This document shows positions 11,565 through 63,007 of a stretch of 64,000 bases of DNA, piece by piece; the stretch's first letter is position 1; each line of letters begins with the position of its first letter. This DNA comes from an uncultured Clostridia bacterium (GTDB lineage Bacteria; Bacillota; Clostridia; Christensenellales; Borkfalkiaceae). The stretch spans positions 2,870 to 66,869 of the forward strand of contig CAMUFJ010000007.1 in the NCBI GenBank assembly GCA_947088135.1, written 5' to 3'. A program made the position numbers and the translations under genes. A model generated the notes under the pieces. That model ran no database searches. It was not told the DNA's origin and saw only the letters and a program-made list of their open reading frames with translations.

Positions 11565-11643
11565 AAAGGCGCATTAATGTTTTAGTTTGCCAAACGACGG
11601 GCTTTTTTTGAATCAGCGAGTTTTTTGTTTCCCAACAAAAAAG

Positions 11644-11666
11644 GGAATCCGTGTGCCACGGATTCC
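11644..11666. other. Perfect 10-bp hairpin in the 5' leader (GGAATCCGTG-tgc-CACGGATTCC)
   Basis: Direct reading. The minus-strand version is followed by a T-run. Confidence 0.55.
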
Positions 11667-11741
11667 AAAAAGCTTATCCGGACGGCTGAAAACGGGAGGG
11701 TTTTCCCTGCGAACGCAATTCATGCGGGAAAAGGGGAGCTT

Positions 11742-29700: not shown

Positions 29701-32700
29701 CGCCCACGCGTGCGGGCACCGTTACGCTGAAAATCACGGTCGGGGAAACCGAACAGTTTGTGGAAACTTTCTTTACGGCCGAGGTCGCGATCACGCCCAT
29801 GACGGCGGAAATCGCTTGGGAAAAGACGGAGTTCGTCTATAACGGCGACGGTCAAGTTCCCACGGCGCGTGTCACCAACTTGCTTTCCGCAGATAAGGAT
29901 AAGGTGGAAGTCGTCGTAGACGGAATGCAGACGGACGCGGGAAGTTATACGGCGACGGCGATTCGTCTTACGGGCGACAATGCGGTCAACTACGTGCTTT
30001 CCGAGAGCGGAAACACCACCGAGTTTAAGATCGACAAGGCGGAAATCAACCCCGTCATCACCCTGTCCCGCGTGTACTGTCAGATTCCTGCCGAAATCAC
30101 GCTCGAAGGCAATCTCGGCGACGCGGAAGTCGCATACACCGTCGTAGACGGCGGAACGGGTTCTGCGGAAATCAGCGGGAGTACCATTACGCCGACCGTC
30201 GAGGGTTCGGTCATCGTGAAAGCGGTTGTGGCGGAATCGAAGAACTATTACGGCAAGACGACGCAGGCGGTCATCGTCATCGAAAAGAAGAAGATCGTGC
30301 TCGGGCTTGCCCAAACGGAGGTCGTCTACGGCAATGAGATCACTCTTGTCGTAACGGGCAACGAAGAGAACGGCGCGGTGAAGTTCTCCGTAGTCAACGA
30401 TACGGGTTCTGCAACCGTTTCCGAAAGCGGCGTTTTAAAGGGCACGGGCGCAGGCACGGTCAACATTATTATTACCGTTGCGGAAACCGACAGCTATCAG
30501 TCGTCGAGCGAAACGGTCAAGTTTACCGTTTTGCCCCGTCAAATCGGCGGACTGAGCTGGGCGGTGCCCGAGCTCGTCTATAACGGCGAAGCGCAAGCGC
30601 CCGTTGCGTCGGCTTCGGGGATTTTGAGCGGAGACGAATGCAACGTCACCGTTGCGGGCGGCAAGGTCAACGCAGGCATTTACGCCGCGGGCACGGCTTA
30701 CGCATCCGCGCTCTCCAACCCCAACTATACGCTCGGCTCCGTCGGAGGAATCAACGCTCCCGAGTTCACGATCGAAAAGGCAGATCCGACCATTACGCTT
30801 ACTACGCAAAAGGCGACGCTCGGCGTTCCTCTCACCCTCGAAGTGAGCGGAAACGACGGCGAAGGCACGGTGAAGTACGAGATCGTAACTTCGGCGGGCG
30901 GAACGGGCGCGGCGGTCATCAACGGCGACGAATTCATAGGCACGAAGCTCGGAGAAGTGTACGTGCGCGCCACCGTGTCGGCTACCGCTAACTACAACGA
31001 GGCTTATTGGAACGGTACTGTCACGATCGAAGCTCCCGAGATTCCTTTGGAACTCACCGAAACGGAAACGGTTTACGGCGACAACTTGAAGCTCGTCGCC
31101 AAGGAGTACGAGGAGGGCGTCGTTTCGTTCAAGCTCGGCGAGGGCGGAACGGGTTCTGCGGAGATCGTAGGCAATACGCTGATTCCCAAGAGAGCGGGTA
31201 CTGTCACAGTCATTCTCTCCGTTGGTGCGTCCGACAGTTATCAGGGCGCAACCGAGAATGTCACCGTTACCATCAAGCCGCGCGCGGTCGGTGTAACTTG
31301 GGGCAATTTGTCCTTAGTCTACAACGGCACGGAGCAGGTCGCTTCCGTCACGCTTTCCAACTTAGTCGAAGGGGATACTTGCGAAGTCACCGTAGGCGGC
31401 GCGAGCAGCGACGCGGGCAAGCATACCGCGACGATCACCATGCTGGGCAACGAAAATTATATTCTTGCTGAGGACGCGGAGAAGAGCAAAGAGTTCGAAA
31501 TTACGCCCTGTATCGTCGTGCTCGAATGGACGGTCGGCGATTATACCTACAACGGAAAAGAACAAAAGCCCGACGTGAAAATATTGAATCTGATCGCGGG
31601 CGACGAGTGCGAGATCACCGTTACGGGGCAGAAGGACGCTTCGCTCACCGCAAAAGCGACGGCAACCGAGCTTTCCAACAAGAACTATACGTTAGAGGGC
31701 TGTGAAAACGCAACCGTGAACTTCGTCATCAAGCAACGGACGATTAGCGTCGAATGGGGTGAAACGCAGCTTGTGTACAACGGCAGACCGCAAACGCCCG
31801 TGCCTGTTTTAGGCGGGCTTGTGGAGGGCGACGAATGCGAGCTCACCGTTACGGGCGCGCAAAAGGACGTCGGTAACAATTACTCTGCAACCGTAGAGGG
31901 AGTTCTCAATCCTAACTACGCGCTCGAAAATACAAGTACCACCAAGTACTCCATTAAGCCCTACGAGCTGGAAATTACGGCGCAAGATCTTGTCAAAGAG
32001 TATAACGGCGAGTATCAGAAACCCGATATCTTCGTGACGCCGCTCGACGAGAATGACGACGTGGTGCTTACGCTCGAAGGCTTGGGCGAATACGGCGAAT
32101 ACAAAGTGGGCAAGTACGAAATCAAGCTTGTTCTCAGCGGTACGGCTAAGGGCAATTATGCCGTTAAGGAAGGGCAGGAAACGCTTACGTTCGTTATTAC
32201 GCCCATGGAAATTCCCGTGCTCGTCACGCCCAAAGACGTGACCGTGATTTACGAGGGAGCGCCCATTACCGCCGACGACATCGAAGGTTGGTACGTATTG
32301 GAATTACAGGGCGCGCTCGCTCCCGCCGATTCCGATCTCACGCCCGAAGAGCTGTTTGCAGGTTTGGTTTTAAAACCCATTATCAAATCGGGCGAAAACG
32401 TCTTGACGGAAATTACCGAAAACGGCATTTATCTGCTTACGCCCGATATTTCGGACGAAGCGGTCGTCTGCGGGAACTACGCCTTGAAGCTGATCATTGA
32501 CCCCGACGACGAGTACTGCGATCTGATCGTCAACGGCGAAAGCACCGACGTCATCACGCTGAGAGATGAATCGAATTATCAATTTATTACCAAGACGGAA
32601 GAGAACGGCGGTAACTATCGGTTTACGTATGCGGAAATGGGTTGGACGCATGGCGATCACGACGTCGGCAAGGTAGATAAGTACGTCATAGGGCAAATCA

Positions 32701-33140
32701 GTCCCCGAACTTCGGTAAACGCGTTCTTGAATCATATCAAAAATAACAAGAGCGTGCGCGTTTACAGCAAAGAGGGCAAATTACTCTACGATCGCGGAGC
32801 TCCCGGCGAAGGCGTTACCGCCGACGATTTGGGCAGATGGTCGAAAATCCGCGTTACCACGGGCAGCTACGTTGTTCTTATGAAGGGTGATGCGGAAGTC
32901 GAAAGAGTTTATTTGTCCGTTTTGGGCGACGTGAACGGCGACGGTTTGGTGAATTCTTCCGATTCCGTCAGCATATCGGCTTATATCCAAAACAAATCGC
33001 AGATAGTCGAAACGGAGTTCTTACTCGCGGCAATGATTGTAAACAACGGTCAGATTTCCGCTGCGGACGTTACGCAACTCAATCGCGTTATTACCTTAAA
33101 AGTCGATATCGAGGACTTTTACTACGATTCTAAGCAGTAA
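11742..33140 (+). CDS. Giant (7,132 aa from the preferred start) secreted adhesin-like protein. It has a signal peptide, 11 tandem Pmp-like parallel beta-helix modules, about 36 MBG-type stalk domains, and a C-terminal conserved module plus dockerin-like domain.
   Basis: A single uninterrupted frame (track 11625..33140). ATG at 11742 follows AAGGGGAG. The hydrophobic LFMLFICLLLSFVFGFGF is followed by AHA/AE. GGxxYV...FNMxGG (GGA/FxxN-like) repeats recur. The YNGxEQxP and YGTxLxL domain arrays are typical of MBG domains. The C-terminus has GDVNGDGLVNSSD...NNGQISAADV Ca-loop pairs. Confidence 0.9.
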   Translation: MQKEKLNNRYGEKPASGGFLLTLSSNRLRGLRTAGLFMLFICLLLSFVFGFGFRRSDSKQLTAHAAEDWGATWNAAITASSTDNPQTVKLTSAWATNTGTTSGSGFSSNRLYVPAGKSIVLNLNGQTINRGLTSANNYGSVFYVCGTLTLQGSGYVRGGYINGSYSSAYGGGIHIASGGVVNIEGPTIGPNTSRAANTAAGVYVASGGTLNLKSGNIGNSSNVNTATNSNAAGGVFVASGGVFNMTGGGIYNNSASGTKSGAGVRVVSGGTFHMTGGNIRRNTASGTYSGAGVYLDGTMKMTGGQIGYYSSQSSSYYNNATNSTGAGGLYYAENGKLSVGGSGSIYYNLTSGSYTKDIVFASATSKINVISQISSTSYRYGVYKSGAGSFTSGCGTYCTSPASVFVVQNSGTYKSMTLTDNGVTEVAQINKTNAAENWSYFVQKSIDTKTQQTVTLSANWTASSGNLGTGTGFSSGRIYVPAGADIVLNLNGYTVDRGLTSANSYGNVFYVAGSLTIKGTDGSFIKGGYTNASGSNSRGAAITVNGGTLNLQGGVIGSNRLTSYSSSTSYTGSSGVYVINGTFNMTGGYVGKASYGNTAASGVYNAGGVCVADGGTFNLSGGYIQNNTASYTSNGGAVSVLSGGKFNMTGGYIRNNTASNATSAGGVFLASSATATFTGGQIGNSSSYANKGTSTNSVGGVYVSNGASVNLGGSVRITANTGAIASNLYFASAIGKATVVSAFNSAKVGIVRNGNADNYAVSGDRRNFTVDYSKYNTASPTSFFTADAVADGLATHEIYLAEDEASLKCLVGSANWSYAVARSISDKSTQTVTLASAWKGVSGSLGSGTGFSNGRAYVPANSNIVLNLNGFTVNRGLTSTNNYGSVFFVEGTLTVKGNSASYISGGYTNNAYGAGVHILSGGVVNLEGGVIAKNTATATFSGGGVYVASGATFNMKGGYVGSGSSAYNTATNANSAGGVFVANGGTFNMNGTAATPYIYYNRANGATSGAGVYLAGSGAVFNMEAGYIRFNTAAGATSGGGVYLNGTMNMTGGQIGRYDNTGYGNTASNTATGAGGIYYAGGSLSVGGDASVYNNVSGSSYGKDVVFAKETLKIKFISAMKSTSYRFGIYKTGVGAFTTDFGKFNSENYYATYFVNYNSSYTVGRETVNSVVEVTLVSTGGAENWSHAVQRSLETKEQQTVTLTQNWNANASSFGTGTGYDGGRLYVPAGADIVLRMGSYSINRGLTSANNYGSVFYVCGTLTIQGNNTSNYIRGGYVNGSNSTARGGGAHVANGGVLNLQSGIFAGNSSTASSYGAGGVYVANGGTFNMSGGYVGYNNTTNSNITLRGYNYSSGTKGAGGVVVMNNGKFNMTGGYIYGNTAGGATSGGGVLLYEGATMTLTAGRIGTSYANRATGTESAGGVFVMSGANLILGGGACYINNNTGAVAPNLYFASPTGYATIVGSLSGTIGVKRSGDADNYAVDPSKRNITKDYSKFNSSLGCFKADDSAYHVVQLRDGEVVLHCKRSSANWSYAVARSLADKSTQTVTLEENWVGTSGSLAGIYSTGFSQGRMYLPAGTSVILNLGSYSINRGLTSVNNYGSVMYICGTLTINGGSGTYIRGGYTNGYYSSTYGGGIHIASGGNVTMNGGVIGKNTTTHSYAGAGVYVGSGAVFNLKSGYVGASGYANTATNTYSAGGVYVADGGVFNMSSNSANVIYNTASNANSGGGIYVASGGTFNMTGGYIRYNTASGATSGGGVYLAGVMKMTGGNVGRSGSTGYGNTASQATGAGGIYYASSGNLSVGGDAVVANNITSGSYTKDIVFASEKSKINVVSNLGYSTSSSSYRFGIYKTGVGAFTNGFGTYSNNTSYYSPTFISQNSAYTLGTVKVNNVLEVSFTSINGTENWSEAVKQSLANNGAQQTVKLTRNWVATSGSFGTTTGYANGRIYVPAGANIVLNLNGYSVNRGLTSATNYGSVFYVCGTLTIEGGGTSGVVRGGYANGNASSARGGGVHVDTGGIFNLKSAVVGANKSNCTYGGSGVYVANGATFNMSGGYIGGYTTSVANYSYGKSSGAGVYVGSGGTFNMTGGYVRYNVSSGTKSGAGIFMSGIVKITNGQIGNGSSYANKATGTESAGGIYVTNGATLSLGGGSVAVYNNTGTLAPNVYFVNATAKATITGAFSSTSYKIGVKRAGYADNYAANNSSNFTSGWSASNSGNPVSYFVCDDTATHKIIQSSDKEGAFECTVNGVNWENAVKQSKADGKQKIVNLTGNWTASGSFTSIISTAEGYSNGRLYVPVRADIVLNLKGFTLNRGLSSANNYGSVFYVAGTLVIDGNGSSNSIVRGGYANGYYSSTRGGGIHVANGGKVTLQNNVTLRNNTSSGSYGGGGVYVSDGGLFTLRSSYIHYNYSTNTYSGAGVSVMGGGKFVMESGSIYYNRASGNYSAGGVFIADKGTLDITGGLIGHSSSTSYANVSTAATGAGGVYVASGGILNAGGTANIRNNGIGSTVTYNTRDVYLLSNTAKINVISRHTNSSYKIGVYRSGNGVITSGYGKAGNTNSPSTFYVCENTTYTMLSEGSGETLEGSLLSGNNAENWSYAVQQSLNNNGALQTVTLTKNWSASGGSFGSGTGYASGRLYVPAGANITLNLNGYSVDRRLTSANNYGSVFYVAGTLTIQGTNSSYIRGGYSNSYYSYTRGAGIHIYDNGTVNMEGGAIVSNRSTGSYGAGGVYVSSGATFNMKGGTIGASGLANTVSGSRSGAGVFVANGGKFFMSNEKSTSYIYYNTASGTYSSGGVYLDGNSAFEMTGGYIGYSSSAYNTATGNYSAGGLYNNGGTFTMTGGSFRNNRVTGTYSAGGVYVNSGTFTMTAGYIGSSSTSYANYATNSAGNSVGGVYVNTNGKVSLGGTAFICNNQTYNRYTGNLYFVNPNTSATIVSSFASGARINIYRTANVTTKPDGSAMTNGFVEKNGSALSTSYFYADVTLASGAVDYRIIHENNEAYLYYLDPVTNWEIAVNTSSASDPKTVKLFANWKAGSNTNYTTAFSMNSNGSSYPFYQGTLNVPTGRSVVLDLNGYTLSRELTAAKARANGYVLGVRGGTLKIIDSSTGKSGVIRGGSSNSASVGSGIYVYSGTLTLEGGRIMDNYGSYGVYINSSSVFNLGGDIGVYNNKNASNNPANIFLSLDSNLINIVSPLTSEREIGITRTVPYEFTKGWGKFHDETVDPELHFSSDDLNFRIGPAGAGETTEVAILGNDNASNWQYAVTTSLKTKKTYTVQLTEDWSAGKNSSYGTAFGINTTAYYYGALYVPSGASVILDLNGYTVDRKLATGNVFNVVGKLEIVDLSAEKTGTIKGGSNGIYIYNGGTVVMNAGTISGNANYGVHDYKGTFTMTGGTVADNTGASVYVERNGRLNLGGTPVIDNGTGGKNVVLAYESTVIGITSKFEEGAKVSLLRKGVGQLTSNWSRYNAGVDPWEYLTSESDVFLPSTEEISGSLEAFLISYDNNINWQYTVSSSLSSKTTKSMQLYEDWTASSHDTYTTAFGTTSAYLNGALYVPKGASVVLDLSGFDLNRGLSEARANGYIIYVQGELKIVDSRAAEEGEGARITGGKNNSGSSAGAVYIAAGGVFTLADAQIISNEATSDSASAGAVYTAGTFNFTSGTITDNAGANAGGVYVAGSGALNMADGTSIVGNAANGSAGGGAVYAAGAFGFKGGEISANTGTAGGVYVAGGGNLAFESGKIVGNNGTIAGGVYVYNSASANFAMSGGEIVQNSVSGNKTAGGVYAAGGKVVVTGGLISRNRAEDGEDTAGGVYIAGAGNVTVTGGEISENTGTNGLRADGSATLNLGGVAKIRNNASKAGNKIDIYMTSETRAINIVSKFEEGAEIGIWRDKAGSFTKGYGIYNGAESGAVDPNGFFRSNKEIYNIFQTEAAEGESIEVAAGIPANRPYAIGADDETETPVYNGSEQLIISGYDSTKMSIGDLPEGVKLTENGFVATHAGTYTVTFTPGSDYCWTNGTVSPYQVNGVIAPKPVELSWTNSEYTYDGNPHKPDAEVVNLVAGDECSVTVAEEKTNAGTYTATASALSNTDYTLENGKNITHEFVIHKAPMTLTFKTTAAVYKQALTLSLDGNVEGGTVAYTVENMTGKGEIQGADVLMPTWVGEVKVTANVTETTNYLAGTVSEVFTIEQAEAPLELAVKEASYGTPLTLTVTDYGEVGALAFTVEENKTGEGEIAVGTAVFKPLSVGTVDIRVTASATHNYKETSVVNTITVKPRVVTLAWSDLEFVYDGESHCAAAEITNLIEGDECNLQVAGAQVNAGTYNATAKSVDNKNYTLEGAEETVKEFVIHKANISPVVNTAEIVFKKEQQLDVDGNLGAGSVKLTVLAGGTGNATASGDKIKGTWVGTVEVQVEIGETQNYLGATLTVSIEVTPADPEIELATKEAVYGTALRLTVSGNEENGAVHYALADGETKASISGDTLTPHSVGEVTVNIYVEPTHNYKEGNFTAVVTVKPRPVTVIWTKLEFDYDGNEHVPEATITGLVEGDTCSVIVLGAQVNAGTHTAMADSLGNPNYTLIGGTDVNTKFTVKPRAVTLSWNDPDFTYNGEMQTPTATVTNLIGTDECTVTVLGTKDAGTNLTAMATGLSNANYTLDGGSNLVTTYAIKPLSVELEWTDTELVYNAAEQKPTATVKNLCGSDKCEIVVIGAQTNVGEYTATAFGVTNPNYTLEGGKNLSTPYKIVRAPITVTLVDNVLVYGTEATLAVEGNLGEGAVTFTVENGTGTATAKGSCILPTKVGTITVTATVERTANYEGGSVTATVTIQPRRVTLAWEEDMEYVYNGEEQAPVARVIDLLEGDTCDVRVSGHKDAGQNLTATATSLSNENYTLLGCTTLTATFAIVPLKAELAWSNFELVYNGKEQAPTATVSNLIGADKCEVTVAGETNVGNDLVASAINLSNPNYTLEGTTNLTATFAIKPLVADVVWTDTKLTYNAEEQAPTATVGNLCEGDSCLVTVSGAQINAGTYTATASSLSNPNYTLTGATDLTTTFTIERAKREVSLVESETVYGTSLTLTLAGNSENGSVSYQVSGGTGAATMSGSVLTPTRAGEVVLTVTVGETKNYEKTTATLTVTVKPKPIGLTWKDKEFTYDGTEKKPTATATGLIGSDSCDVIVGGGQTDAGAYLANASALSNSNYTLEGATDLSCPFVINKANITVTITSTRTTYGTPLPLVLEGNLGNAEVAYTVTEGTGSGVVDGKGVFTATGFGTVTITAVVAESKNYFGATTSAQIVIDKGPAPIELATSNAVYGTPLVLVLSGADEEGKLTFAVQDGTGTATLSGNILLPTKVGTVTLVVKMSATDTFVETVKSFTVTVKPRPVELVWEMTDFTYNGKEQTPKATVMNLVDGDSCDVTVSGQTDAGMDQLATATAVSNENYTLEGSSTASTTYVIKQKVVGLDWGNTEFIYNGEDQAPTPAVTNLEGSDECEVTVTGAQTNAGDYFATATELSNSNYTLEGTDNVSCSFHIDRLKITVTITTTETVFGTDLKLETSGNLGGGEESFSVQDGTGSAEIAGDTLIPKRIGTVLVTVSVGETANTYSASAEAEITIKKGTVSVDFAKKSTVYGTPLKLELTGNEENGAYQYTITDETGSAMLSGTDTLVPLKAGTVTVRVVVNETTNYDRTEFEAQITIEKLVAQLEWTEGVLVYNGEEQAPEVKMVNLVGEDKCEIEVSGVKNAGKNLTATAESLSNENYTLEGAENLACTFEIAPLKVELEWGETSLEYNGEAQTPEITVLNLQGDDTAEDCELTVTGAETEVGKGYTAKVEGVGNPNYTIEGAENLSVPFEITKGTFTFEIIAGEAVYNVPMKLSVSGNKSGGAVTYEVTEGPATLSGDILTPTGTGITIIVKATVAETDHYFAAEAVMNLNAGKGMAEYALAVNTVVYGTDLKLSVVDADGNLAEGEIDYELADGGTGSAEISGSILTPTRAGTVTLKITVGETEQFVETFFTAEVAITPMTAEIAWEKTEFVYNGDGQVPTARVTNLLSADKDKVEVVVDGMQTDAGSYTATAIRLTGDNAVNYVLSESGNTTEFKIDKAEINPVITLSRVYCQIPAEITLEGNLGDAEVAYTVVDGGTGSAEISGSTITPTVEGSVIVKAVVAESKNYYGKTTQAVIVIEKKKIVLGLAQTEVVYGNEITLVVTGNEENGAVKFSVVNDTGSATVSESGVLKGTGAGTVNIIITVAETDSYQSSSETVKFTVLPRQIGGLSWAVPELVYNGEAQAPVASASGILSGDECNVTVAGGKVNAGIYAAGTAYASALSNPNYTLGSVGGINAPEFTIEKADPTITLTTQKATLGVPLTLEVSGNDGEGTVKYEIVTSAGGTGAAVINGDEFIGTKLGEVYVRATVSATANYNEAYWNGTVTIEAPEIPLELTETETVYGDNLKLVAKEYEEGVVSFKLGEGGTGSAEIVGNTLIPKRAGTVTVILSVGASDSYQGATENVTVTIKPRAVGVTWGNLSLVYNGTEQVASVTLSNLVEGDTCEVTVGGASSDAGKHTATITMLGNENYILAEDAEKSKEFEITPCIVVLEWTVGDYTYNGKEQKPDVKILNLIAGDECEITVTGQKDASLTAKATATELSNKNYTLEGCENATVNFVIKQRTISVEWGETQLVYNGRPQTPVPVLGGLVEGDECELTVTGAQKDVGNNYSATVEGVLNPNYALENTSTTKYSIKPYELEITAQDLVKEYNGEYQKPDIFVTPLDENDDVVLTLEGLGEYGEYKVGKYEIKLVLSGTAKGNYAVKEGQETLTFVITPMEIPVLVTPKDVTVIYEGAPITADDIEGWYVLELQGALAPADSDLTPEELFAGLVLKPIIKSGENVLTEITENGIYLLTPDISDEAVVCGNYALKLIIDPDDEYCDLIVNGESTDVITLRDESNYQFITKTEENGGNYRFTYAEMGWTHGDHDVGKVDKYVIGQISPRTSVNAFLNHIKNNKSVRVYSKEGKLLYDRGAPGEGVTADDLGRWSKIRVTTGSYVVLMKGDAEVERVYLSVLGDVNGDGLVNSSDSVSISAYIQNKSQIVETEFLLAAMIVNNGQISAADVTQLNRVITLKVDIEDFYYDSKQ
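11937..23570 (+). repeat. Eleven tandem coding repeats of about 0.75-1.3 kb (beta-helix modules)
   Basis: Each module opens with the conserved block NW(S/E)xAV...QTVxL...NW...G(F/Y)xxGRLYVPAGAxIVLNLNGYxxxRGL(T/S)SANNYGSVFYVxGTLTIxG. Module starts are near 11937, 13044, 14178, 15285, 16326, 17454, 18489, 19524, 20769, 21513 and 22257. The last three are divergent. Confidence 0.85.
23571..32200 (+). repeat. About 36 tandem coding repeats of about 85-90 aa (two alternating MBG-like domain types)
   Basis: Type A reads KPRxVxLxWxxxEFxYNGxEQxPxAxVxNLxxGDxCxVTVxG...NAGxYTAxAxxLSNxNYTLEG. Type B reads xxVYGTxLxLxxxGNxxxGxVxYxV..GTGSAxIsG..LtPtxxGtVtv. I counted them by eye in the translation. Confidence 0.8.
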
Positions 33141-52090: not shown

Positions 52091-52198
52091 TTTTCACGTA
52101 AAAAGAATTGCACGATTGACGAAAATAAGGTATAATAATGAGAGTGCATGGTGCGGGATTTTCCGCAAACAGTCAATTCACGGCATCGGAGTGATTTC

Positions 52199-54325
52199 AT
52201 GAAGAAGAAAAAAACAGCGATCATAGCGTTAGCGGTTGCGGCAAGCTTGGCTTGCGGCACTCTTGCAGGGTGCGATCTTATTACCACGGATCCCCATAAA
52301 GATTACGCGCAGACGATCGCTACCGTAGATATCAGCAAGAGCGAAATTTTTCAAACGGGCGAGTTCAAAGATTACAAGAGCGTCATTAAGCCCGCGGATA
52401 TCATCAAGCGGGATATGATCGCATCGTTCGTTTCCAGCGGCTATTCTGCAATGAATTCTTACGGTTGGACGTACGAAGATACCTTCAAGGCGATCAGCGA
52501 GAGCCTTGTCAACCGCCAGCTTACCATTCAGTACGCCATGGCATACATTCTCAAATACGAGGAAGGGAAAGAAGACGGTCGCAACATTGCGGATTATGAA
52601 GCCGCCGTTGCGGGCAAGACGGATTTCGACGCGAAGCTCGCGGGGCTTGCGTATTTCCTCGACGAGCCCGAAGAGAAACAGGCGTTGTACAAGACTCGCG
52701 TGCTCTTCAACAATACTTTGGATTCGCAGGAGAAAAGCATCATCAAGGAAGACGAGGATTCCTCTTCCTCCACGGATACGGTGCGTACGTTGCCTTCGGG
52801 CGTGAATTCCTCGAACAGCGATTATTTCGACGAAACTTACAAGATTTACACTGCGGTGGGCGACGCCAAAAAGGGCGGGCTTGCTTCCGCTTGCGGATCT
52901 TACGAAACCGTAAAGGGTTCCTCGCCCTATACCCGAAAAAGGGCGTACAACAAGTTTCTTGCAAGCCTTCGCCAAAACGATTTGCTTTTCAGCGACGAGG
53001 ACACGACGGATTTCGAGGGGCTCACCTACTTTAAAATCGAGCTCGTATCCGCTTACGAGTCAGCGATCATCAACAAGCTTTCCGATTTGTACGAGGAAGT
53101 CGCCGAAGCAAGCCTGAACGCGGAATACTTGCAGAACTATTACGAGGAACTTCGTGCGACGCAAGAGGACACCTTCAATGCGGAGGGCGGAAGATCGACG
53201 TTCGAATCAGCGCTTGACAAAGTTTCGGATACCTCCTTCCTGCTCGCTTCTCCCCGTTCCGACGGTGCGGAGAGCGCAACTCCCAACAAGTACGGATACG
53301 TCATCAATATTCTGCTCCCGTTCAGCAAGACGCAGACGGCGAAGCTCAACGCTTTCAATGCAGATTACGGCGATAAAAACGGCAACTCCTTCGCTCAGCG
53401 CGCTAAGCTTTTGAAGGAAGTGCAGGCGACCGATCAGCGTGCAAGTTGGTTCACGGGCGAAACCGACCACGGCTTCGAATATAAAGATATCATCGCCGAC
53501 GCCTATACGGGCGGAAACAGCGACAGAACGTATCTCTTCTTCGAGGACAGTCTCACGGGCAACGATAAATACGAGCCCATGACCAAGTACTACGGCAAGT
53601 ACACCTACAACGGCACGGTCACGAAAGACGCCGACGGCGATTACGTCGTCAAACCCAAAAAAATCGAGATCGACAAGTTCATGGACGAAATGGAGGGATA
53701 CCTTACTTTCGCGGGTTTGACCGTTGAAAAGGGCGTTAAGACCGCAAACTACTACGACAGAAGCGTTGCCGACTATTACAAGGATAAAAACGTAGAAGCA
53801 GGCAAAGTCGATTATGCGAGCTTCGTTTACTACGCGGGCAAGGTTGCTATCAGCGATTACGACGTAGACAAGATTTTTGTAGACGGCACGGACGAGAACA
53901 AGGCGTTCTCCGTCATAAACGAACTTTCCTTTGCATACAATACCGATACGGCGGGCTTGAATCCTTACTACGGCTATTCGGTGGTAACGGGCAAAACGAG
54001 CTTTGTCAGCGAGTTCGAATATGCGGCGCAGCTTGCATGCAGAGAAGGGGCGGGTTCCTACGTGGTAGCGCCTTCCGACTACGGTTGGCATATCATCTAC
54101 TGTACGTTCGTGTTCGACGGCGGCGCGCCGTTCACCTTCAAGGAAGCGGAAATGGAAACGGAGGGAACTTTCTCGTATCATTTGTACGAAGCGGTGAAAT
54201 CCTCCGTTGTGGATAAATACAGTTCCAACCAGCAGGCGGAAATTTTGAGCGCGTACAGCAATTCTACCTGCACGACCATTTATGAGGAACGCTATTCCGA
54301 TTTATTCGAGCTTGATAATTTGTAA
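52199..54325 (+). CDS. Large lipoprotein with a C-terminal parvulin-type peptidyl-prolyl isomerase-like domain (PrsA/SurA-like foldase)
   Basis: ATG at 52199 gives MKKKKTAIIALAVAASLACGTLAGC (lipobox). The C-terminal SDYGWHIIYC resembles the rotamase signature. The position after mfd is typical for Clostridia. Confidence 0.65.
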   Translation: MKKKKTAIIALAVAASLACGTLAGCDLITTDPHKDYAQTIATVDISKSEIFQTGEFKDYKSVIKPADIIKRDMIASFVSSGYSAMNSYGWTYEDTFKAISESLVNRQLTIQYAMAYILKYEEGKEDGRNIADYEAAVAGKTDFDAKLAGLAYFLDEPEEKQALYKTRVLFNNTLDSQEKSIIKEDEDSSSSTDTVRTLPSGVNSSNSDYFDETYKIYTAVGDAKKGGLASACGSYETVKGSSPYTRKRAYNKFLASLRQNDLLFSDEDTTDFEGLTYFKIELVSAYESAIINKLSDLYEEVAEASLNAEYLQNYYEELRATQEDTFNAEGGRSTFESALDKVSDTSFLLASPRSDGAESATPNKYGYVINILLPFSKTQTAKLNAFNADYGDKNGNSFAQRAKLLKEVQATDQRASWFTGETDHGFEYKDIIADAYTGGNSDRTYLFFEDSLTGNDKYEPMTKYYGKYTYNGTVTKDADGDYVVKPKKIEIDKFMDEMEGYLTFAGLTVEKGVKTANYYDRSVADYYKDKNVEAGKVDYASFVYYAGKVAISDYDVDKIFVDGTDENKAFSVINELSFAYNTDTAGLNPYYGYSVVTGKTSFVSEFEYAAQLACREGAGSYVVAPSDYGWHIIYCTFVFDGGAPFTFKEAEMETEGTFSYHLYEAVKSSVVDKYSSNQQAEILSAYSNSTCTTIYEERYSDLFELDNL

Positions 54326-57371: not shown

Positions 57372-57447
57372 GCTGCTGTGGCTCAGCAGGTAGAGCACGT
57401 CCTTGGTAAGGACGAGGTCGGCGGTTCAAATCCGCTCAGCAGCTCCA
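57372..57447 (+). tRNA. tRNA-Thr (GGT), encoded CCA
   Basis: GCTGCTGTGGCTCAGCAGGTAGAGCACGTCCTTGGTAAGGACG...GGTTCAAATCC...CAGCAGCTCCA. The anticodon loop is TTGGTAA. Confidence 0.9.
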
Positions 57448-57450
57448 ATA

Positions 57451-57491
57451 ATAACGTAAGTTGAACCAAAATTCAGCTTGCGTTATTTTTT
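57451..57491 (+). terminator. Intrinsic terminator after tRNA-Thr
   Basis: ATAACGTAAGTTG-(10 nt)-CAGCTTGCGTTAT (two G-U pairs) followed by TTTTT. Confidence 0.7.
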
Positions 57492-57506
57492 ATATAAGAC
57501 CTGCTC

Positions 57507-57535
57507 TTGCGAAATTTGTTAGATTATGGTATAAT
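57507..57535 (+). promoter_or_regulatory. Promoter of the GHKL-helicase gene with an extended -10
   Basis: TTGCGA-17 nt (ending TGG)-TATAAT, about 30 nt upstream of the ATG at 57568. Confidence 0.6.
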
Positions 57536-57567
57536 GTGAAAAAATAATATTTTCGGAAGTACAAAGC

Positions 57568-60500
57568 ATGACAGAGCAAGAAAAAATCTATTTTGAAGCA
57601 TTAAAAAATGACCGCATAGATAGCGACAGAGTATTGCAAAAAAAATCTATGCGCGGCGTTAAAAATAGCGTGGTTGAAAAGTATTCAGACCAAGCACACT
57701 TTATATATGAGTTATTGCAAAATGCTGATGATGCTGGGGCGACAGAAGCTAAATTTGAATTGTATGGAAATAGACTTGTTTTTAAACATAACGGAAGTCG
57801 GCACTTTTCTGTATCTAACCCCGACACAGAAGAAGCTGATACCGAAAATGGCGTATTGGGAGATATCAACGCTATTACTTCCATTGCTAATTCTAATAAA
57901 ACGTCAGCTGAAATAGGAAAATTTGGTGTTGGTTTCAAATCGGTATTTCAATACACTACAACGCCAAAAATTTATGATCCGAATTTTCGTTTTTATATCG
58001 ATAGATTTATTGTACCTGTTCAAATTGAAGATGATTATGAAAAAAGATTACCTAATGAAACTATATTTATTTTTCCTTTTAATCACCCTCAAAAAACGGC
58101 TGAAATAGCGTATTGCGATATTGAAAAGAAGTTAAAAACATTAAAATACCCTATTTTATTTCTTTCAAACTTAAAATATGTTTCGCTCGAATTTTCCGAT
58201 ACTCTTGGGCTGTACGGTAAAAATATTGATGAGAATAAGAGTTTTAAAGAAAATGGTATTACGGCAGAACTAATAAAACTTACTCATAATATTGGAGATG
58301 ACTTAATAGACCAAAACCTTTGGTTATTTTCGCGTGAATATTTAATTTCAGAAAAACATTCCGCAAAATATTCAGTCGGTTATTTTATAGGAGATGACGG
58401 AAAACTTAAACCCGTAAACGAGCAAGCATTTTGTTTTTTCCCTACGAAAGAATTAACAAACTTAAATTTTATAGTCCATGCACCTTTTTTACTTACTGAC
58501 AGTCGTGAGGGCATAAAAGCAGGCGAACAACATAATAAAGATATGATTAAATTGCTTGCAGATTTAGCGGCAGACAGTTTACTATTGCTTAAAAAGATTG
58601 GTATTGATAGTAACAACCGTTTAATTGACGACAACATATTTAATATATTACCTTATGATGAAGATGAGTTTAACGACGAAGATGATAATGATAAAATATC
58701 ATTTAAACCGTTCTATATTGCTATTAAAAACAAATTTGAAGCCGAAGAGTTGCTACCCACTATTGACGGATATACAAGCACTGAGAACGCATATTGGGCT
58801 TCTGTAACGAGGTTAACAGAAGTATTTGGAAATAATCAATTAGCACAATTAAGTCATAATCCAGAAGCAAAATGGGTTTTTACGTCTTTGGGACGGGAGA
58901 ACACACAGAGGAAAAATGAAAACAGTCCTGTATCTTCTTTCATTGATGCCATAACAAAAATGTGGTTAGACGAAAATGCCTTATTAAAGGGGCGTTATAC
59001 AGGCAATTATCTTTATGGTGGGTTAAAAAGAATATTTGACGGATTAGATAAAAGTTTTATTGAAAATCAACCAATAGATTGGCTGTACGGATTTTACGCT
59101 TGGGTATCTGAAAGGACATCAAGAATAAATACTGTAAAAAATATGCCAATATTTTTAGATGAAGCTGGTAATGCGGTTGCAGTTTTTGACGGAAACGGGC
59201 AAGAAGTATTATTTTTACCGTCAACAGGGATAGACGGCTATAAAACAGTAAATCAAGAATTGCTAAATAACGAAGCTACTGTTACTCTCTTGAAGCAAAT
59301 TGGTATAAAAGAGCCGACTTTAAAAGATGAAATATACAACATTATTTTACCTTTATATAAAAACGGAACAGCGGCTGATTATGAAAGTCATTTTTTAAAA
59401 TTCTTTCAATATTATCAAGAGTGCCCTAATAATCAGTCGCAAAGCTTTATTGCTATGATAAAAGATCTATCTTTTATTAGCGGCAAATCAAATGACGGTA
59501 AAAATGAGGTTGGCATAGCACAAAATTTTTATATTCCAGATAATGATTTGTTTAAATATTTTTCTGCGAAGCCAACAACAAAATTTATTGATTTTAATAA
59601 ATATTTAACAATAGTTGGAGAAGAAAATAAAGAAAAATTAACTTGTTTTTTTAAAGTGTTGGGTGCAAAAACATTACCGCAAATTTTTGAAATTGAAATA
59701 TCACAGGAGGAGGCGGAAAAGTATCATAAAAAGAGTTGGAACAGGTCAACAAGATACCAAGAATGGATAAATAAAAAAATTGACGGGCTTCAAGAAGTTA
59801 TAAAAGAAATAGTTGATAAAAAAGATTTTACATTATCTGTTGCATTATGGAAAATTCTTTTACGATTTGCCGAAACTTATACTATATCGCAAAATAAACA
59901 TTTAATTGATATTTTAGAAGGTCATTATCGGTATTTTTTCCGTGAAAGATATTATACTCCTTTTGACACCACTGATATTGTTGATTTGAGAACACAAAAG
60001 TGGTTATTTAGTAAAGATAATATTTTTAGCGCTGCTAATGCAATATTTATTGAGGATCTATCAGATAGCTACTGTACAACAACTTATGGGGCAAAAGAGT
60101 TAATATCATTTTTATGTATTAACGACAAACCGTTAGTTATTGAACAAACCAACCAAGAAGAAAACATTACAGACGAAGAACGCAGATTACAAAAATTAAA
60201 AACTGCGGGATTTACTGACGAAGAAATAGATAGTTTAATAGAGAAAAAATTAAAAAAAGACAATACACCCGATGATAACGATGACGAAGATGACAGTGGC
60301 GAAAAAACAACTACCCCTGCGGTAGAAAAAGTTATTAAAAAAATCCGCAAAAAAATTAAAAAGCCTAACACTTCTGATTTGTCAGATGATGACGATAATG
60401 ACGAAGATGACTATACAAAGCCTACTATTGATTACAATAAAAAGATAGAGCAGGCGGAAGAAAAAAGTCGTATTGAAATTGAAAGAATAGCACATTTACA

Positions 60501-62370
60501 AGAATTACAGACAACCGCCGCCAATGCAGAAAAATATTCCTACTTATGGTTTAAAACTCTATTAGAAATGGAAGCTCTTGCTGACGGTGAGGATAACGGC
60601 AACAGTAGGGAAATTTCGATTTGCTTTGCAAAAGCCGAATTGGAAGCAGGCACAACACGAACGCTTATATTAAAACACCCCAATAGATATATTCCGCAAT
60701 TCATGGAAGATTTGGCGGATATACCTTTAACATTGCACTATGGCAACCAAACAAAAAAGGTAGCCATAGAGGTTTTGAATGTGCAGTCATATACCGTTAG
60801 AGCTAAATTAAAGTCTGGGGCAGAGATTGAAGATATAGATTTGTCGCTTGTAAATGAAGCAAGAATAGACGCCCAAAATCCTACATTTTTGCTTGAAGAA
60901 CTGATAAAAGGTTTTAATTCGTTAGGCTACGCTGATGATTTCAATTTAAAGTCAAATCTTACGGATAAAATCGATTTTATTTTTGGTCCCCCTGGCACAG
61001 GTAAAACTACTCATTTAGCCAATAAAGTTATTTTACCGTTAATGCAGGAAGATAAAAATTTAAAAGTTTTAGTTTTAACACCTACCAATAAGGCGGCAGA
61101 TGTCATCACTAAACGCATAATGGAATGCGATAAAAGCAAATCGTATTCCGAATGGCTAATAAGGTTTGGAACTTCAAATGATGACTTAATCGAACATAGC
61201 GGGATTTATAAGGATAAAACATTTGATATTAGAGTTTTACCAAAAAATGTTACGGTTACAACCATTGCAAGATTTCCCTATGATTTCTTTATGCCCAATG
61301 GTGAAAGATTACATTTGAGCGCGTTAAAATGGGATTATATCATTATTGACGAAGCCTCCATGATACCCATTGCAAATATAATTTTCCCGTTATACAAAAA
61401 AACACCTACAAAATTTATTATTACAGGCGATCCTTTCCAAATTCAGCCGATTACCCGTAGCGAAGCTTGGAAAGATGAAAATATATATACAATGGTAGAG
61501 TTAAACAATTTTACAAACCCCACGACTGTTCCGCACGATTATAAGGTAGAGCTTTTAACTACTCAATATAGAAGCGTGCCTACAATAGGCAATGTTTATA
61601 GTATTTTTGCTTACGGCGGCGTTTTACAACATAATCGTGCAGAAAGCAGTAAACGGAAATTGAATATTGACGAATTTATAAATGTATCTTCGTTGAATTT
61701 AATCAAGTTTCCCGTAAGTAAATATGAAAGCATTTATAAGCCTAAACGCTTACAGGGGAAAACGCCATATCAAATATATTCGGCATTATTTACTTTTGAA
61801 TATGTGAAATTCATAGCCGAAAAGCTTGTAATCAAAAATAAAGGCGAAATTTTCAGTATAGGCATTATTGCACCTTATAGAGCGCAAGCCGATTTAATTG
61901 ATAAACTGTTTGCTTCATACAAATGTCCGCAAGGTATAGATATTCAAGTTGGGACAATACACGGTTTTCAAGGCGACGAATGTGATATAGTGTTTGCTGT
62001 ATTTAATCCGCCCCCTAAAATATCGGCTTCAAAAGAAATGTTTTTGAATAAGAAAAATATCATAAATGTTTCTGTTAGCAGAGCAAGAGATTATTTGTTT
62101 ATAGTTATGCCTGATGACAATACTGAAAATATAGAAAATTTGAGTTTAATAAATAAGGTAGAATCCATTTGCATTGATAACGGCAGTCTTGGATACCTTT
62201 CCCCCGATATAGAAGAACTAATATTTAATGACAGCCACTACCTTGAAAACAACTCATTTGCGACAAGTCATCAAATAGTCAATGTTTATGGAAAGCCCGA
62301 ATTAAAATACGAAATTAGAAGTGAAGACACGGCAGTTGATATTCAAATTCACACTGACGAAGAAAACTAA
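57568..62370 (+). CDS. 1,600-aa fusion protein. It has an N-terminal sacsin/NO VEIN-type GHKL (Bergerat-fold) ATPase, a long helical/acidic linker, and a C-terminal SF1B Upf1/DNA2-like helicase.
   Basis: The GHKL N box is ELLQNADDA (nt 57709..57735), the G box is GKFGVGFKSVF (57916..57948), and HAPFLLTDSREGI follows. An Asp/Lys-rich linker lies near nt 60160..60400. The helicase motifs are GPPGTGKTT (60985..61011), IIIDEASM (DE at 61348..61353), GDPFQIQP, TTQYRS, GTIHGFQGDECD and NVSVSRARD. The gene is strikingly AT-rich relative to its flanks. Confidence 0.85.
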   Translation: MTEQEKIYFEALKNDRIDSDRVLQKKSMRGVKNSVVEKYSDQAHFIYELLQNADDAGATEAKFELYGNRLVFKHNGSRHFSVSNPDTEEADTENGVLGDINAITSIANSNKTSAEIGKFGVGFKSVFQYTTTPKIYDPNFRFYIDRFIVPVQIEDDYEKRLPNETIFIFPFNHPQKTAEIAYCDIEKKLKTLKYPILFLSNLKYVSLEFSDTLGLYGKNIDENKSFKENGITAELIKLTHNIGDDLIDQNLWLFSREYLISEKHSAKYSVGYFIGDDGKLKPVNEQAFCFFPTKELTNLNFIVHAPFLLTDSREGIKAGEQHNKDMIKLLADLAADSLLLLKKIGIDSNNRLIDDNIFNILPYDEDEFNDEDDNDKISFKPFYIAIKNKFEAEELLPTIDGYTSTENAYWASVTRLTEVFGNNQLAQLSHNPEAKWVFTSLGRENTQRKNENSPVSSFIDAITKMWLDENALLKGRYTGNYLYGGLKRIFDGLDKSFIENQPIDWLYGFYAWVSERTSRINTVKNMPIFLDEAGNAVAVFDGNGQEVLFLPSTGIDGYKTVNQELLNNEATVTLLKQIGIKEPTLKDEIYNIILPLYKNGTAADYESHFLKFFQYYQECPNNQSQSFIAMIKDLSFISGKSNDGKNEVGIAQNFYIPDNDLFKYFSAKPTTKFIDFNKYLTIVGEENKEKLTCFFKVLGAKTLPQIFEIEISQEEAEKYHKKSWNRSTRYQEWINKKIDGLQEVIKEIVDKKDFTLSVALWKILLRFAETYTISQNKHLIDILEGHYRYFFRERYYTPFDTTDIVDLRTQKWLFSKDNIFSAANAIFIEDLSDSYCTTTYGAKELISFLCINDKPLVIEQTNQEENITDEERRLQKLKTAGFTDEEIDSLIEKKLKKDNTPDDNDDEDDSGEKTTTPAVEKVIKKIRKKIKKPNTSDLSDDDDNDEDDYTKPTIDYNKKIEQAEEKSRIEIERIAHLQELQTTAANAEKYSYLWFKTLLEMEALADGEDNGNSREISICFAKAELEAGTTRTLILKHPNRYIPQFMEDLADIPLTLHYGNQTKKVAIEVLNVQSYTVRAKLKSGAEIEDIDLSLVNEARIDAQNPTFLLEELIKGFNSLGYADDFNLKSNLTDKIDFIFGPPGTGKTTHLANKVILPLMQEDKNLKVLVLTPTNKAADVITKRIMECDKSKSYSEWLIRFGTSNDDLIEHSGIYKDKTFDIRVLPKNVTVTTIARFPYDFFMPNGERLHLSALKWDYIIIDEASMIPIANIIFPLYKKTPTKFIITGDPFQIQPITRSEAWKDENIYTMVELNNFTNPTTVPHDYKVELLTTQYRSVPTIGNVYSIFAYGGVLQHNRAESSKRKLNIDEFINVSSLNLIKFPVSKYESIYKPKRLQGKTPYQIYSALFTFEYVKFIAEKLVIKNKGEIFSIGIIAPYRAQADLIDKLFASYKCPQGIDIQVGTIHGFQGDECDIVFAVFNPPPKISASKEMFLNKKNIINVSVSRARDYLFIVMPDDNTENIENLSLINKVESICIDNGSLGYLSPDIEELIFNDSHYLENNSFATSHQIVNVYGKPELKYEIRSEDTAVDIQIHTDEEN

Positions 62371-62385
62371 AAATTGAATTTGGCA

Positions 62386-62448
62386 CTGTGGCGGGGGCTT
62401 GAATAAACGAGCGCGCCGCTTCGCGGCGCGTTCAAGCCCCCGCCACAG
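62386..62448. other. Compound hairpin with an 18-bp outer stem and an 8-bp inner GC stem
   Basis: CTGTGGCGGGGGCTTGAA...[CGCGCCGC-ttc-GCGGCGCG]TTCAAGCCCCCGCCACAG by direct reading. No T tract follows. Confidence 0.75.
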
Positions 62449-62503
62449 CGGAAACATAGGAACAAAAACAACTAAAAACAAAATACGCACGGCGAAACGA
62501 AAC

Positions 62504-62568
62504 GCCGCGCGGAAAAGGGCGTTCACCGCTAACCCGCTTGGCGAATCGCCCTTTTTAATCCGCGCGGC
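62504..62568. other. Second compound hairpin (9-bp plus 9-bp stems with a 4-nt bulge)
   Basis: GCCGCGCGG-AAAAGGGCG-(25-nt loop)-CGCCCTTTT-taat-CCGCGCGGC by direct reading. Confidence 0.65.
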
Positions 62569-62606
62569 TGTTCCTGCGTTTTCCCCGTGTTTATGTATTT
62601 TGTACA

Positions 62607-62652
62607 CTTTTAGTTCCCTTTTAGTTACCCTTTGGTTCACTTTGAGTTCCCC
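62607..62652 (+). repeat. Four tandem iteron-like 10-12-mers
   Basis: CTTTTAGTTCCC / TTTTAGTTACCC / TTTGGTTCAC / TTTGAGTTCCCC. Inverted, related copies (GGAACAAAAA, CAACTAAAAAC) lie at 62459..62480. Confidence 0.6.
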
Positions 62653-62721
62653 GCAAAAAGTTTTTGGAACATGTATAATGGGATTTGCTTATTAAGCAAA
62701 TCCGAACGGGAGGCGAAAACG

Positions 62722-62850
62722 GTGTCCGCGAAAGAATTTGAAGTCATAACGATTGAAGAACCTGATAATTTGTTATCGGAAAACGAAAGGCGCACGTTCT
62801 TTGAAACGCTGTTACAGCGAATTAAAGAATTAAAAGCACAAAAGAATTAA
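62722..62850 (+). CDS. Small 42-aa hypothetical protein (element gene)
   Basis: GTG at 62722 lies 8 nt after GGGAGG, in frame with track ORF 62632..62850. It is preceded by a TATAAT (62674..62679) and a 9-bp hairpin (62681..62703). Confidence 0.4.
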   Translation: MSAKEFEVITIEEPDNLLSENERRTFFETLLQRIKELKAQKN

Positions 62851-62957
62851 ATCGAAAAAAACAATTTAATAACCCAATCAAGGTAAGTAAAAGTTAAGAT
62901 AGTACCGCTCAACGGCAAGCCGAGATTTCCGCATAGGAACAGTGGTTGCGTTGAGAA

Positions 62958-63007
62958 AGAGCAGAGTACGAAACATTTGTATTGTTTTGTATTCTGCTCT
63001 TTTTTTA
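62958..63007 (+). terminator. Intrinsic terminator upstream of the second rep
   Basis: AGAGCAGAGTAC-(19 nt)-GTATTCTGCTCT followed by TTTTTTT. Confidence 0.6.

Follow-up and report, generated by a model that had tools for sequence, protein, structure and literature searches.

A sacsin-type ATPase fused to a Upf1-like helicase, carried by a tRNA-targeting integrative element, is a candidate immunity protein related to Tiamat

A 64-kb stretch of DNA from an uncultured Clostridia bacterium (contig CAMUFJ010000007.1; hereafter the window, 64,000 nucleotides at full length) carries, next to a tRNA-Thr(GGT) gene, an integrative element of about 8.4 kb whose cargo gene encodes a protein of 1600 amino acids (aa) with a sacsin-type GHKL ATPase at the N-terminus and a Upf1-like superfamily 1B (SF1B) helicase at the C-terminus. 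The gene product is probably an immunity protein that works as a single polypeptide against phages or other mobile DNA, and it belongs to a superfamily related to Tiamat. The best-supported conclusion is that the gene is accessory, has spread horizontally and takes part in conflict, and that at this locus a serine-recombinase element with a tRNA target carries it as cargo. The analysis shows the domains of the protein, the conservation of both ATPase sites, the structure of the element, the exchange of C-terminal effectors among relatives and the defence-type neighbourhoods of homologues; the immune function, the target and the roles of the modules are inferred.

Domain architecture and conservation of the cargo protein

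The cargo gene is an ATG-started open reading frame (ORF) that runs stop-free for 4.8 kb at 33% G+C and is therefore not a chance frame, and its translation contains all the peptide motifs quoted in an earlier reading made from the DNA letters alone (the sequence-only reading), which had proposed a sacsin-type GHKL N-terminus and a Upf1/DNA2-type SF1B C-terminus. Database and structure searches agreed with both assignments. In the N-terminal part, Pfam SACS matched residues 34-137 (E 1.4e-13), NCBIfam P_loop_sacsin scored 70.3 bits (cut-off 50), residues 34-137 also matched the PDB sacsin SR1 crystal structures 5v44-5v47 by sequence, and Foldseek with an AlphaFold model of residues 1-960 (mean predicted local distance difference test score, pLDDT, 80.7) returned the N and M domains of Hsp90/TRAP1/HtpG, sacsin SR1, GyrB and MLH1; an ExxxNxxD N-box and the glycine-rich lid GKFGVGFK are present. 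In the helicase half, Pfam AAA_11/AAA_12 covered residues 1134-1513, NCBIfam gave partial IGHMBP2-family and RecD matches, PDB Sen1, IGHMBP2, UPF1 and DNA2 were matched by sequence, motifs I, Ia, II, III, IV, V and VI were found together with a two-RecA fold, and Foldseek placed this half with Sen1, ZNFX1, Dna2 and UPF1 (E 1e-10 to 1e-12) from a low-confidence model (mean pLDDT 57) used solely for family-level fold assignment. The Pfam check suggested in the sequence-only reading thus held for AAA_11/AAA_12; HATPase_c_3 (the MORC-type domain, Pfam E limit 0.1) and NOV_C/DUF3883, also named there, gave no Pfam match in the protein.

Conservation was read from 71 aligned sequences, namely the window protein, 63 helicase-fused cluster representatives and seven closer homologues. 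The residues of the GHKL site (Table 1) and the helicase motifs (Walker A G1140-T1148, DEAS 1261-1264, GDPxQ, QYRS, TxHxFQGDE and SRA) were all at least 93% conserved, and by these motifs both sites look active. Of the two mutants earlier proposed as controls, K1146A does target the Walker A lysine; D54A is not the best choice for the N-box, where E48, N52 and D55 are the residues conserved at 93% or more.

Between the two enzymes lie a middle module, a linker and a pre-Walker region. The middle module is family-specific and shared with TmtA, and was modelled mostly at pLDDT 85-94; a PDB search with a 50-sequence profile of residues 331-870 found no relative, and hhalign between its segments, in search of internal repeats, reached a probability of 44% at best. 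Its invariant positions are Pro, Trp, Tyr and a single Ser (S757), a pattern that looks structural and carries no apparent catalytic signature. The linker is rich in Asp and Lys (D18 and K17 of 91 residues). Residues ~956-1125, in which Y990, W994, I1042, P1043 and E1047 are conserved, may form a Upf1-like stalk or 1B-type accessory domain, and the conserved C-terminal tail continues into variable extensions in longer family members. A hidden nuclease or sensor of known kind, for which the sequence-only reading had left room in the middle of the protein, was sought in residues 330-1130 and rejected within the reach of these tools: Pfam gave nothing at E<=0.1, the top 50 Foldseek matches were of GHKL type only, and the PDB profile search returned nothing.

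The relation to named systems was examined with the defence profiles of PADLOC-DB v2. The TmtA profile PDLC03972 aligned residues 10-970 to profile positions 8-919 of 1302 (E 7.5e-37), and six more TmtA profiles also matched, none beyond position ~920; MkoA matched residues 1254-1513 (E 6.8e-34) and MkoC was matched at E 9.5e-19, both partially and over the RecA2 half. The architecture, which the sequence-only reading could not place in any named defence family, is thus not outside all of them, since the N-terminal ~900 residues are homologous to TmtA and the helicase to MkoA; the PADLOC check proposed in that reading gave these partial matches, and none at full length in PADLOC-DB v2. Because the TmtA match is partial and weak (125 bits), the window protein belongs to a sister branch and is not an orthologue.

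Family size, distribution and exchange of the C-terminus

A word-indexed search returned at least 2,798 relatives of the window protein. The best 120 were all 1,565-1,819 aa long with an identical Pfam architecture, and most were unnamed or labelled 'AAA domain-containing protein'; no label was functionally more specific, and the scattered others ('helicase', 'RecD', 'DUF699') were generic or apparently wrong. An exhaustive search with residues 1-1000 gave 3,722 cluster representatives at 50% identity (1,118 at E <=1e-30), most full-length representatives include the helicase, and the fusion persists at 26-30% identity in Bacteroidota. As the PADLOC models touch this family only partially, defence censuses are likely to miss it, and so large a family, labelled only for its AAA domain, offers a handle on what the N-module senses and how its output works.

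Relatives were found in at least 192 of 185,579 species (one genome per species), distributed over at least eight bacterial phyla (Bacillota, Bacteroidota, Planctomycetota, Acidobacteriota, Myxococcota, Desulfobacterota, Spirochaetota and Gammaproteobacteria), and in Archaea in a Ferroglobus metagenome-assembled genome (MAG) and, found separately, in Methanimicrococcus. Identities of ~54% among Clostridia, Bacillus, Paenibacillus, Desulfosporosinus and Methanimicrococcus indicate horizontal transfer. The survey of homologues that the sequence-only reading called for thus agreed with its expectation, in a qualitative way, of patchy distribution and defence-gene neighbourhoods.

Such a distribution bears on whether the protein could be a housekeeping or stress protein, a chaperone-like ATPase with an RNA helicase for RNA quality control and no role in conflict. 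Chaperone function is known for sacsin and Hsp90, and a part in RNA surveillance for Upf1, Sen1 and IGHMBP2, one archaeal copy stands amid housekeeping genes, and helicase-less relatives in Prevotellaceae and Paludibacteraceae are syntenic with RibD-like and PLD genes; however, the family occurs in few species, scattered over phyla at high identity that indicates transfer, its helicase-fused form has no conserved synteny, the gene at this locus is foreign in composition and carried by a mobile element, and the neighbours of homologues are of defence type. We consider a housekeeping role extremely improbable and retain the reading as a conflict gene. The helicase-less relatives themselves (~900 aa; L075, L077-L079, L081, L091 and L099) come from Bacteroidales, among them Prevotellaceae and Paludibacteraceae. 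Their synteny is conserved, with genes of the LOG-like, RibD-like deaminase/reductase and PLD kinds around them, and they may be a paralogue outside defence.

Further, the N-module was found joined to other C-terminal domains in place of the helicase: GmrSD_N with DUF7834 in three proteins, a clostripain-type Peptidase_C11, or a histidine-kinase-type HATPase_c (P0242, P0259, P0268, P0264, P0247 and P0260). These proteins match the first 580-920 TmtA profile positions only. A TmtA-type protein on a Sulfuricurvum plasmid, adjoining QatABCD and used as a control (L100; TmtA E 2.5e-83), has SACS with NOV_C/DUF3883 at the C-terminus, a further swap on the same module. The ~900-residue Tiamat N-terminus is thus a portable platform that occurs with no fewer than five kinds of C-terminal domain. 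A swappable C-terminus suggests that the N-module is a shared ATP-gated switch or sensor and the C-terminus the output.

Genomic neighbourhoods of homologues

Defence-type genes surrounded many of the homologues. The neighbours included a GmrSD_N protein, a type IV methyl-directed restriction enzyme, MutH-like and HNH genes and UvrD helicases in Bacillus mesophilus; the Eleos dynamin-like pair LeoA/LeoBC in Paenibacillus; a PLD gene, a GajB-like UvrD helicase and SocA_Panacea in Desulfosporosinus; two cytosine methylases and two HNH genes in a Clostridia MAG; and type III restriction-modification with a UvrD-RNase T helicase on a Chryseobacterium plasmid. The P0117 cluster (153 member sequences) lies in a different integrative element, with a primase, DUF5906, Mob_Pre and a serine recombinase, and the Methanimicrococcus copy has housekeeping genes only. 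Pooled over full-length loci, the immediate neighbours included AbiO, Nhi, type II restriction enzymes, PDC-S22, mad3 and methyltransferases.

Clustering of the neighbours revealed a RecD-like family of ~1,200 aa in 16 loci, the full-length members of which match the PADLOC single-gene candidate PDC-S68 end to end. At E <=1e-30, PDC-S68 was present at 12 of 68 full-length loci and was the first neighbouring ORF at 10 of the 68 (upstream on the same strand in L021, L023, L026, L031, L032, L037, L049 and L055, downstream in L044 and L059); at the two other loci one copy lay 6.5 kb off and one hit was a 155-aa fragment. For seven full or contig-truncated copies, which share the strand of the GHKL-helicase gene and lie immediately upstream of it, the gap ranges from -52 to 136 bp. 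PDC-S68 and the GHKL-helicase gene possibly form a two-gene system, and the recurrence of the pair makes this testable; the 64-kb window has no PDC-S68 gene at the same threshold. A conserved small partner gene downstream was considered and rejected, the ORFs of 111 aa that follow the gene in Bacillus and Desulfosporosinus being unrelated. Upstream of a 70%-identical homologue (L009 1..9417) we observed genes for a thymidylate/deoxynucleoside kinase, GTP cyclohydrolase I, dCMP deaminase and a methyltransferase, which could be a nucleotide or DNA-modification module.

These surroundings also bear on the target. The protein could act against rival plasmids and integrative elements, or their transcription-replication stress, and not against phages, with exclusion to the benefit of its carrier. 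Indeed, the gene is repeatedly found at the edge of small integrative elements and also on plasmids, the family is almost absent from phage genomes (one partial match in 50,697 records), and DNA topology or plasmids are known targets of MORC-type GHKL clamps and of SMC-type systems, Wadjet among them; but the neighbouring systems are mostly anti-phage, and the sole experimentally supported relative, the single-gene system Tiamat (TmtA), was reportedly validated against phages by Millman et al. in 2022. Exclusion of this kind is compatible with all the data and differs from the preferred reading, immunity against phages or other mobile DNA, in its target only; as a separate explanation we think it rather unlikely.

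The integrative element at tRNA-Thr

The sequence-only reading took the gene for a single-gene island, with the alternative that it was cargo of the adjacent mobile element; the alternative proved correct on comparison of two element copies, and the gene is the first of an element with a Rep and a serine recombinase, in the order attL in the tRNA 3' end, cargo gene, Rep, large serine recombinase and attR. The part beyond the window end was read from L001, a 290-kb ENA contig that is 99.5% identical to the window and encodes the exact cargo protein; on it, the gene behind Rep encodes a large serine recombinase of 490 aa (Resolvase, Recombinase and Zn_ribbon_recom). In another genome the gene for a protein of 89% identity (P0001, locus L003) is part of an identically ordered set of these three genes, with different chromosomal flanks and adjoining tRNA-Thr(CGT) instead of tRNA-Thr(GGT).

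The DNA homology of the two copies (93%) begins at the tRNA, ends ~250 bp past the recombinase gene and runs up to ...GTGGAGCTCCAA, where it breaks. Both right ends read ...GGTTGGTTGTGGAGCTCCAA and then diverge, and the tRNA 3' ends at both copies read ...AGCTCCAAT; comparing both right ends with both tRNA 3' ends gave AGCTCCAA as the 8-bp core shared by attL and attR. Since each tRNA acceptor stem is complementary to its own 5' strand, the crossover probably lies inside or after this core. A recombinase gene, defined ends with a common core and the same unit at two chromosomal sites together identify an integrative element. The predicted empty junction had no match in two metagenome scans, nor did an excised form come to light, and the host may lie outside that collection. 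At the right end, the stretch GGTTCAATTTAGGTTGGTTGTGGAGCTCCAA is tRNA-like and imitates tRNA-Thr in its T-arm and acceptor end, which fits an attP resembling its tRNA target. About 170 bp past attR (L001 ~18465..18490) part of the tRNA-Thr T-arm occurs a second time, as GAGGTCGGCGGTTCAAATCCG, followed at L001 18744..20855 by nucleotidyltransferase, acetyltransferase, tautomerase and metallo-beta-lactamase-fold genes; this copy may have been left behind by an earlier insertion into that tRNA.

The composition of the locus follows the element. G+C dropped, as earlier described, from 0.52-0.56 over the housekeeping genes on the upstream side (Prs, Pth, Mfd, BacA, YunB and MurG) to 0.27-0.38 across the cargo ORF; the recovery described after the stop codon reaches only 0.41-0.45, below host level, and the DNA there still belongs to the element. 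The foreign composition of the gene was likewise evident, with G+C 0.328 and third-position G+C (GC3) 0.26 vs a GC3 of 0.69 in the host mfd, and the gene is foreign even relative to its own element backbone (0.33 vs 0.44; Rep 0.44).

Several signals named in the sequence-only reading, namely the adjoining tRNA, the promoter, the compound hairpin and the rolling-circle Rep to its right, are all present at the positions in Table 1. The promoter-like site differs from that of the 89%-identical copy by one spacer base and is otherwise identical, and such consensus sites are as numerous in the region as expected from shuffling. The tRNA gene terminator brought by the element keeps its hairpin pairing between the two copies. 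The compound hairpin 3' of the cargo stop codon is identical in both; with no T-tract on the plus strand it is not a canonical intrinsic terminator, and it is a candidate Rep origin or regulatory structure. The backbone between cargo gene and Rep (62386..63002) is 96% identical to its sister, vs 93% for the coding parts, and is probably the origin and control region of Rep; its four direct repeats may act like iterons, judging by their sequence. Rep stands behind the cargo gene in both copies; its relatives were absent from the plasmid collection, and one match of 43% identity was found in an unannotated faecal 'Bacteriophage sp.' contig.

Such an element raises the question of whether the protein serves the element itself, as a helicase that helps the excised form to replicate by the rolling-circle mode or to transfer, or as a factor for its maintenance or partition. 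In both element copies the cargo gene directly adjoins a rolling-circle Rep and a serine recombinase, another homologue (P0117) stands directly behind the serine recombinase of its primase/Mob_Pre element, and rolling-circle replicons need an SF1 helicase. However, their known helpers are of the PcrA/UvrD-type SF1A and not Upf1-like SF1B, the vicinity of most homologues contains neither a Rep nor a recombinase but restriction and other defence genes, the low G+C of the cargo relative to the backbone is that expected of captured cargo, and such a role leaves the ~900-residue GHKL module unexplained. Service to the element is therefore a very unlikely explanation, and we keep to that of an immunity gene carried as cargo.

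Compared with other small serine-recombinase elements, this one likewise has its integrase at one end, its cargo at the other and a short core repeat at both ends, and it differs in its tRNA 3' end target and its Rep of the REP_ORF2-G2P type; tRNA 3' ends are targets more typical of tyrosine integrases. So compact a serine-recombinase/Rep element, with a tRNA-Thr target and one large cargo gene, is a tidy model for the spread of cargo genes.

Elsewhere in the window we noted at 11625..33140 (+) a single TTG-started ORF of 7,171 aa, followed by large ORFs of 763, 1,557, 815 and 771 aa; its product may be a giant surface/adhesin-type protein or a megasynthase.

Table 1. Features of the window and of the integrative element. 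Positions are those of the window unless L001 is named (L001 position x = window position 47567 + x); residues are those of the 1600-aa cargo protein.
Feature	Position	Strand	Basis or remark
725-aa ORF between mfd and bacA	52148..54325	+	Pfam: none except a weak lipoprotein-signal-type match
tRNA-Thr(GGT), integration target, attB side of attL	57372..57447	+	ARAGORN
8-bp core, AGCTCCAA	57441..57448 (attL) and ~L001 18295-18302 (attR)	.	Two-copy comparison
Hairpin and T-run brought by the element, now the tRNA gene terminator	57450..57487	+	Terminator-like site; kept in both copies
Promoter-like site TTGCGA-17-TATAAT with TGn extension	57507..57535	+	Consensus match only; candidate promoter of the cargo gene
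Cargo gene	57568..62370	+	ATG start
Bergerat-fold ATPase and Hsp90-M/transducer-like part, residues ~34-320	57667..58527	+	Motifs E48/N52/D55, G117-K124, A305-R313
Alpha/beta middle module, family-specific, common to TmtA, residues ~321-860	58528..60147	+	TmtA profile reaches residue 970
Asp/Lys-rich linker, poorly conserved, predicted disordered, residues ~861-955	60148..60432	+	pLDDT 29-44; conservation 0.17-0.27
Long helices and beta-barrel before Walker A, residues ~956-1125	60433..60942	+	Secondary structure of model 2; local pLDDT 70-82
SF1B helicase core, motifs I-VI intact, residues ~1126-1520	60943..62127	+	Pfam, PADLOC, PDB, Foldseek, motif conservation
Conserved C-terminal tail SHQxVNVYGxPExxYEIRSEDxAVDxQIH, residues ~1545-1597	62200..62358	+	Family conservation
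Compound hairpin, inner GC hairpin inside perfect 18-nt arms	62386-62403 / 62431-62448	.	Inverted-repeat reading
Four ~11-bp direct repeats CTTT(T/G)(A/G)GTT(C/A)(C/A), iteron-like	62607..62650	+	Read from sequence; kept in L003
11-bp palindrome, preceded by TATAAT	62681..62703		
42-aa ORF, GTG start, behind TATAAT and palindrome; element backbone	62722..62850	+	Gene called in sister; conserved
Hairpin with 20-bp arms	62956..63002		
Rolling-circle-type Rep, 296 aa	63046..63936	+	Pfam REP_ORF2-G2P, E 3.5e-10
Serine recombinase and right element end	L001 16577..18302		Beyond window end

Proposed mode of action

We propose that the N-terminal ~900 residues would be an ATP-gated switch or sensing platform common to the superfamily, working probably by ATP-driven dimerisation of the N-terminus as in other GHKL clamps, and that the disordered acidic/basic linker would tether this platform to a variable C-terminal output domain. 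The output here would be a Upf1-like 5'-to-3' SF1B translocase that loads on the invader's single-stranded nucleic acid, either RNA or DNA (in transcripts, R-loops or replication intermediates), and unwinds or strips these intermediates, so blocking replication or gene expression without a built-in nuclease, while GHKL dimerisation would gate or clamp the complex. In some lineages the adjoining RecD-like PDC-S68 may act together with the GHKL-helicase protein. If the helicase form does protect cells, it would be a defence protein with no recognisable nuclease or toxin, which is mechanistically unusual.

Several points weigh against an immune role of this kind. The TmtA match covers ~70% of the profile at 125 bits, which is a distant relationship, and as the mechanism of Tiamat is unknown this homology carries over a phenotype only. 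The searches detected neither a nuclease nor another toxic effector, which leaves it speculative how a helicase alone would stop an invader, and the killing or blocking step is the weakest part of the model; the helicase half was in addition poorly modelled. Some members stand alone amid housekeeping genes (Methanimicrococcus), the neighbourhood evidence is qualitative, coming from pooled counts of immediate neighbours, and the literature searches found no experiment on the window protein or any member of the same architecture.

Comparison with known systems

With Upf1-like helicases (UPF1, Sen1/SETX, IGHMBP2, ZNFX1 and DNA2) the protein shares all motifs and a similar fold, but at 13-18% identity and with neither a CH/zinc-knuckle nor a nuclease domain. 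It resembles the sacsin/NOV branch in its SACS and P_loop_sacsin matches, its sequence match to SR1 and the fold of Hsp90 N+M and SR1, and differs in that only ~100 residues align by sequence and that neither sacsin nor NOV has a helicase. Eukaryotic sacsin has three such repeats with DnaJ and HEPN domains, NOV has NOV_C, and ZNFX1 is a helicase of innate immunity. We raise, as a doubtful speculation, the wider idea of a 'Tiamat superfamily' of immune platforms, gated by ATP, that would be defined by their common sacsin-type N-module and have a NOV_C nuclease, a GmrSD-type nuclease, a clostripain-type protease or a Upf1-like helicase as interchangeable outputs. In it the helicase branch, apparently its most abundant form, would be nuclease-free and work purely by ATP-driven clamping and 5'-to-3' translocation on invader RNA or replication intermediates, in some lineages with PDC-S68; it might also be a prokaryotic source of the eukaryotic sacsin/NOV ATPases, parallel to ZNFX1-type immunity.

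Prokaryotic MORC/paraMORC GHKL proteins are said to have been linked to restriction-type systems by Iyer, Abhiman and Aravind in 2008. They too combine a GHKL ATPase, there of the HATPase_c_3/MORC type with an S5-fold domain, with helicase or nuclease partners in conflict loci; in the window protein, however, the ATPase is sacsin-type and the partner is fused and not a separate gene, and the window holds no conserved partner gene.

Mokosh comprises MkoA/MkoB (type I) and MkoC (type II), with a PLD nuclease in an adjacent gene (type I) or fused (type II). Its helicase, like ours, is of the COG1112/Upf1-like SF1B kind and has been described as Upf1-like with an essential ATP-binding site (bioRxiv 10.1101/2022.05.11.491447). 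In contrast, Mokosh has no GHKL module, only the second RecA half of the window protein matches its profiles, and the window protein has neither a Ser/Thr kinase domain nor a PLD nuclease, in itself or in an adjoining gene, its neighbours being the tRNA and Rep.

Tiamat is the closest of the named systems. The N-terminal ~900 residues are homologous, with a sacsin-type GHKL ATPase and the middle module in both, and both occur as single large genes in defence islands and mobile elements (PMC12629846). The difference lies behind the disordered linker, where the window protein has a ~640-residue Upf1-like helicase block and no NOV_C. DUF3883 is a domain of PD-(D/E)XK fold (PMC3424549), and a survey places Tiamat among single-gene PD-(D/E)XK systems (bioRxiv 10.1101/2024.10.26.620412). 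A 2026 review that cites Millman et al. 2022 as the Tiamat source states that the mechanism is still unknown (PMC12926258); the preprint of the Millman 2022 paper does not mention Tiamat, and in the literature searched we found no paper describing a bacterial sacsin-helicase protein or a Tiamat mechanism. What is new is therefore the architecture, with no full-length PADLOC v2 model and no description in that literature, and its building blocks and general logic are known. Having neither NOV_C nor PLD, the window protein fails one defining feature each of Tiamat and Mokosh, and on its sequence we treat it as a sister architecture, in which a Tiamat platform carries a Mokosh-type helicase in place of the nuclease.

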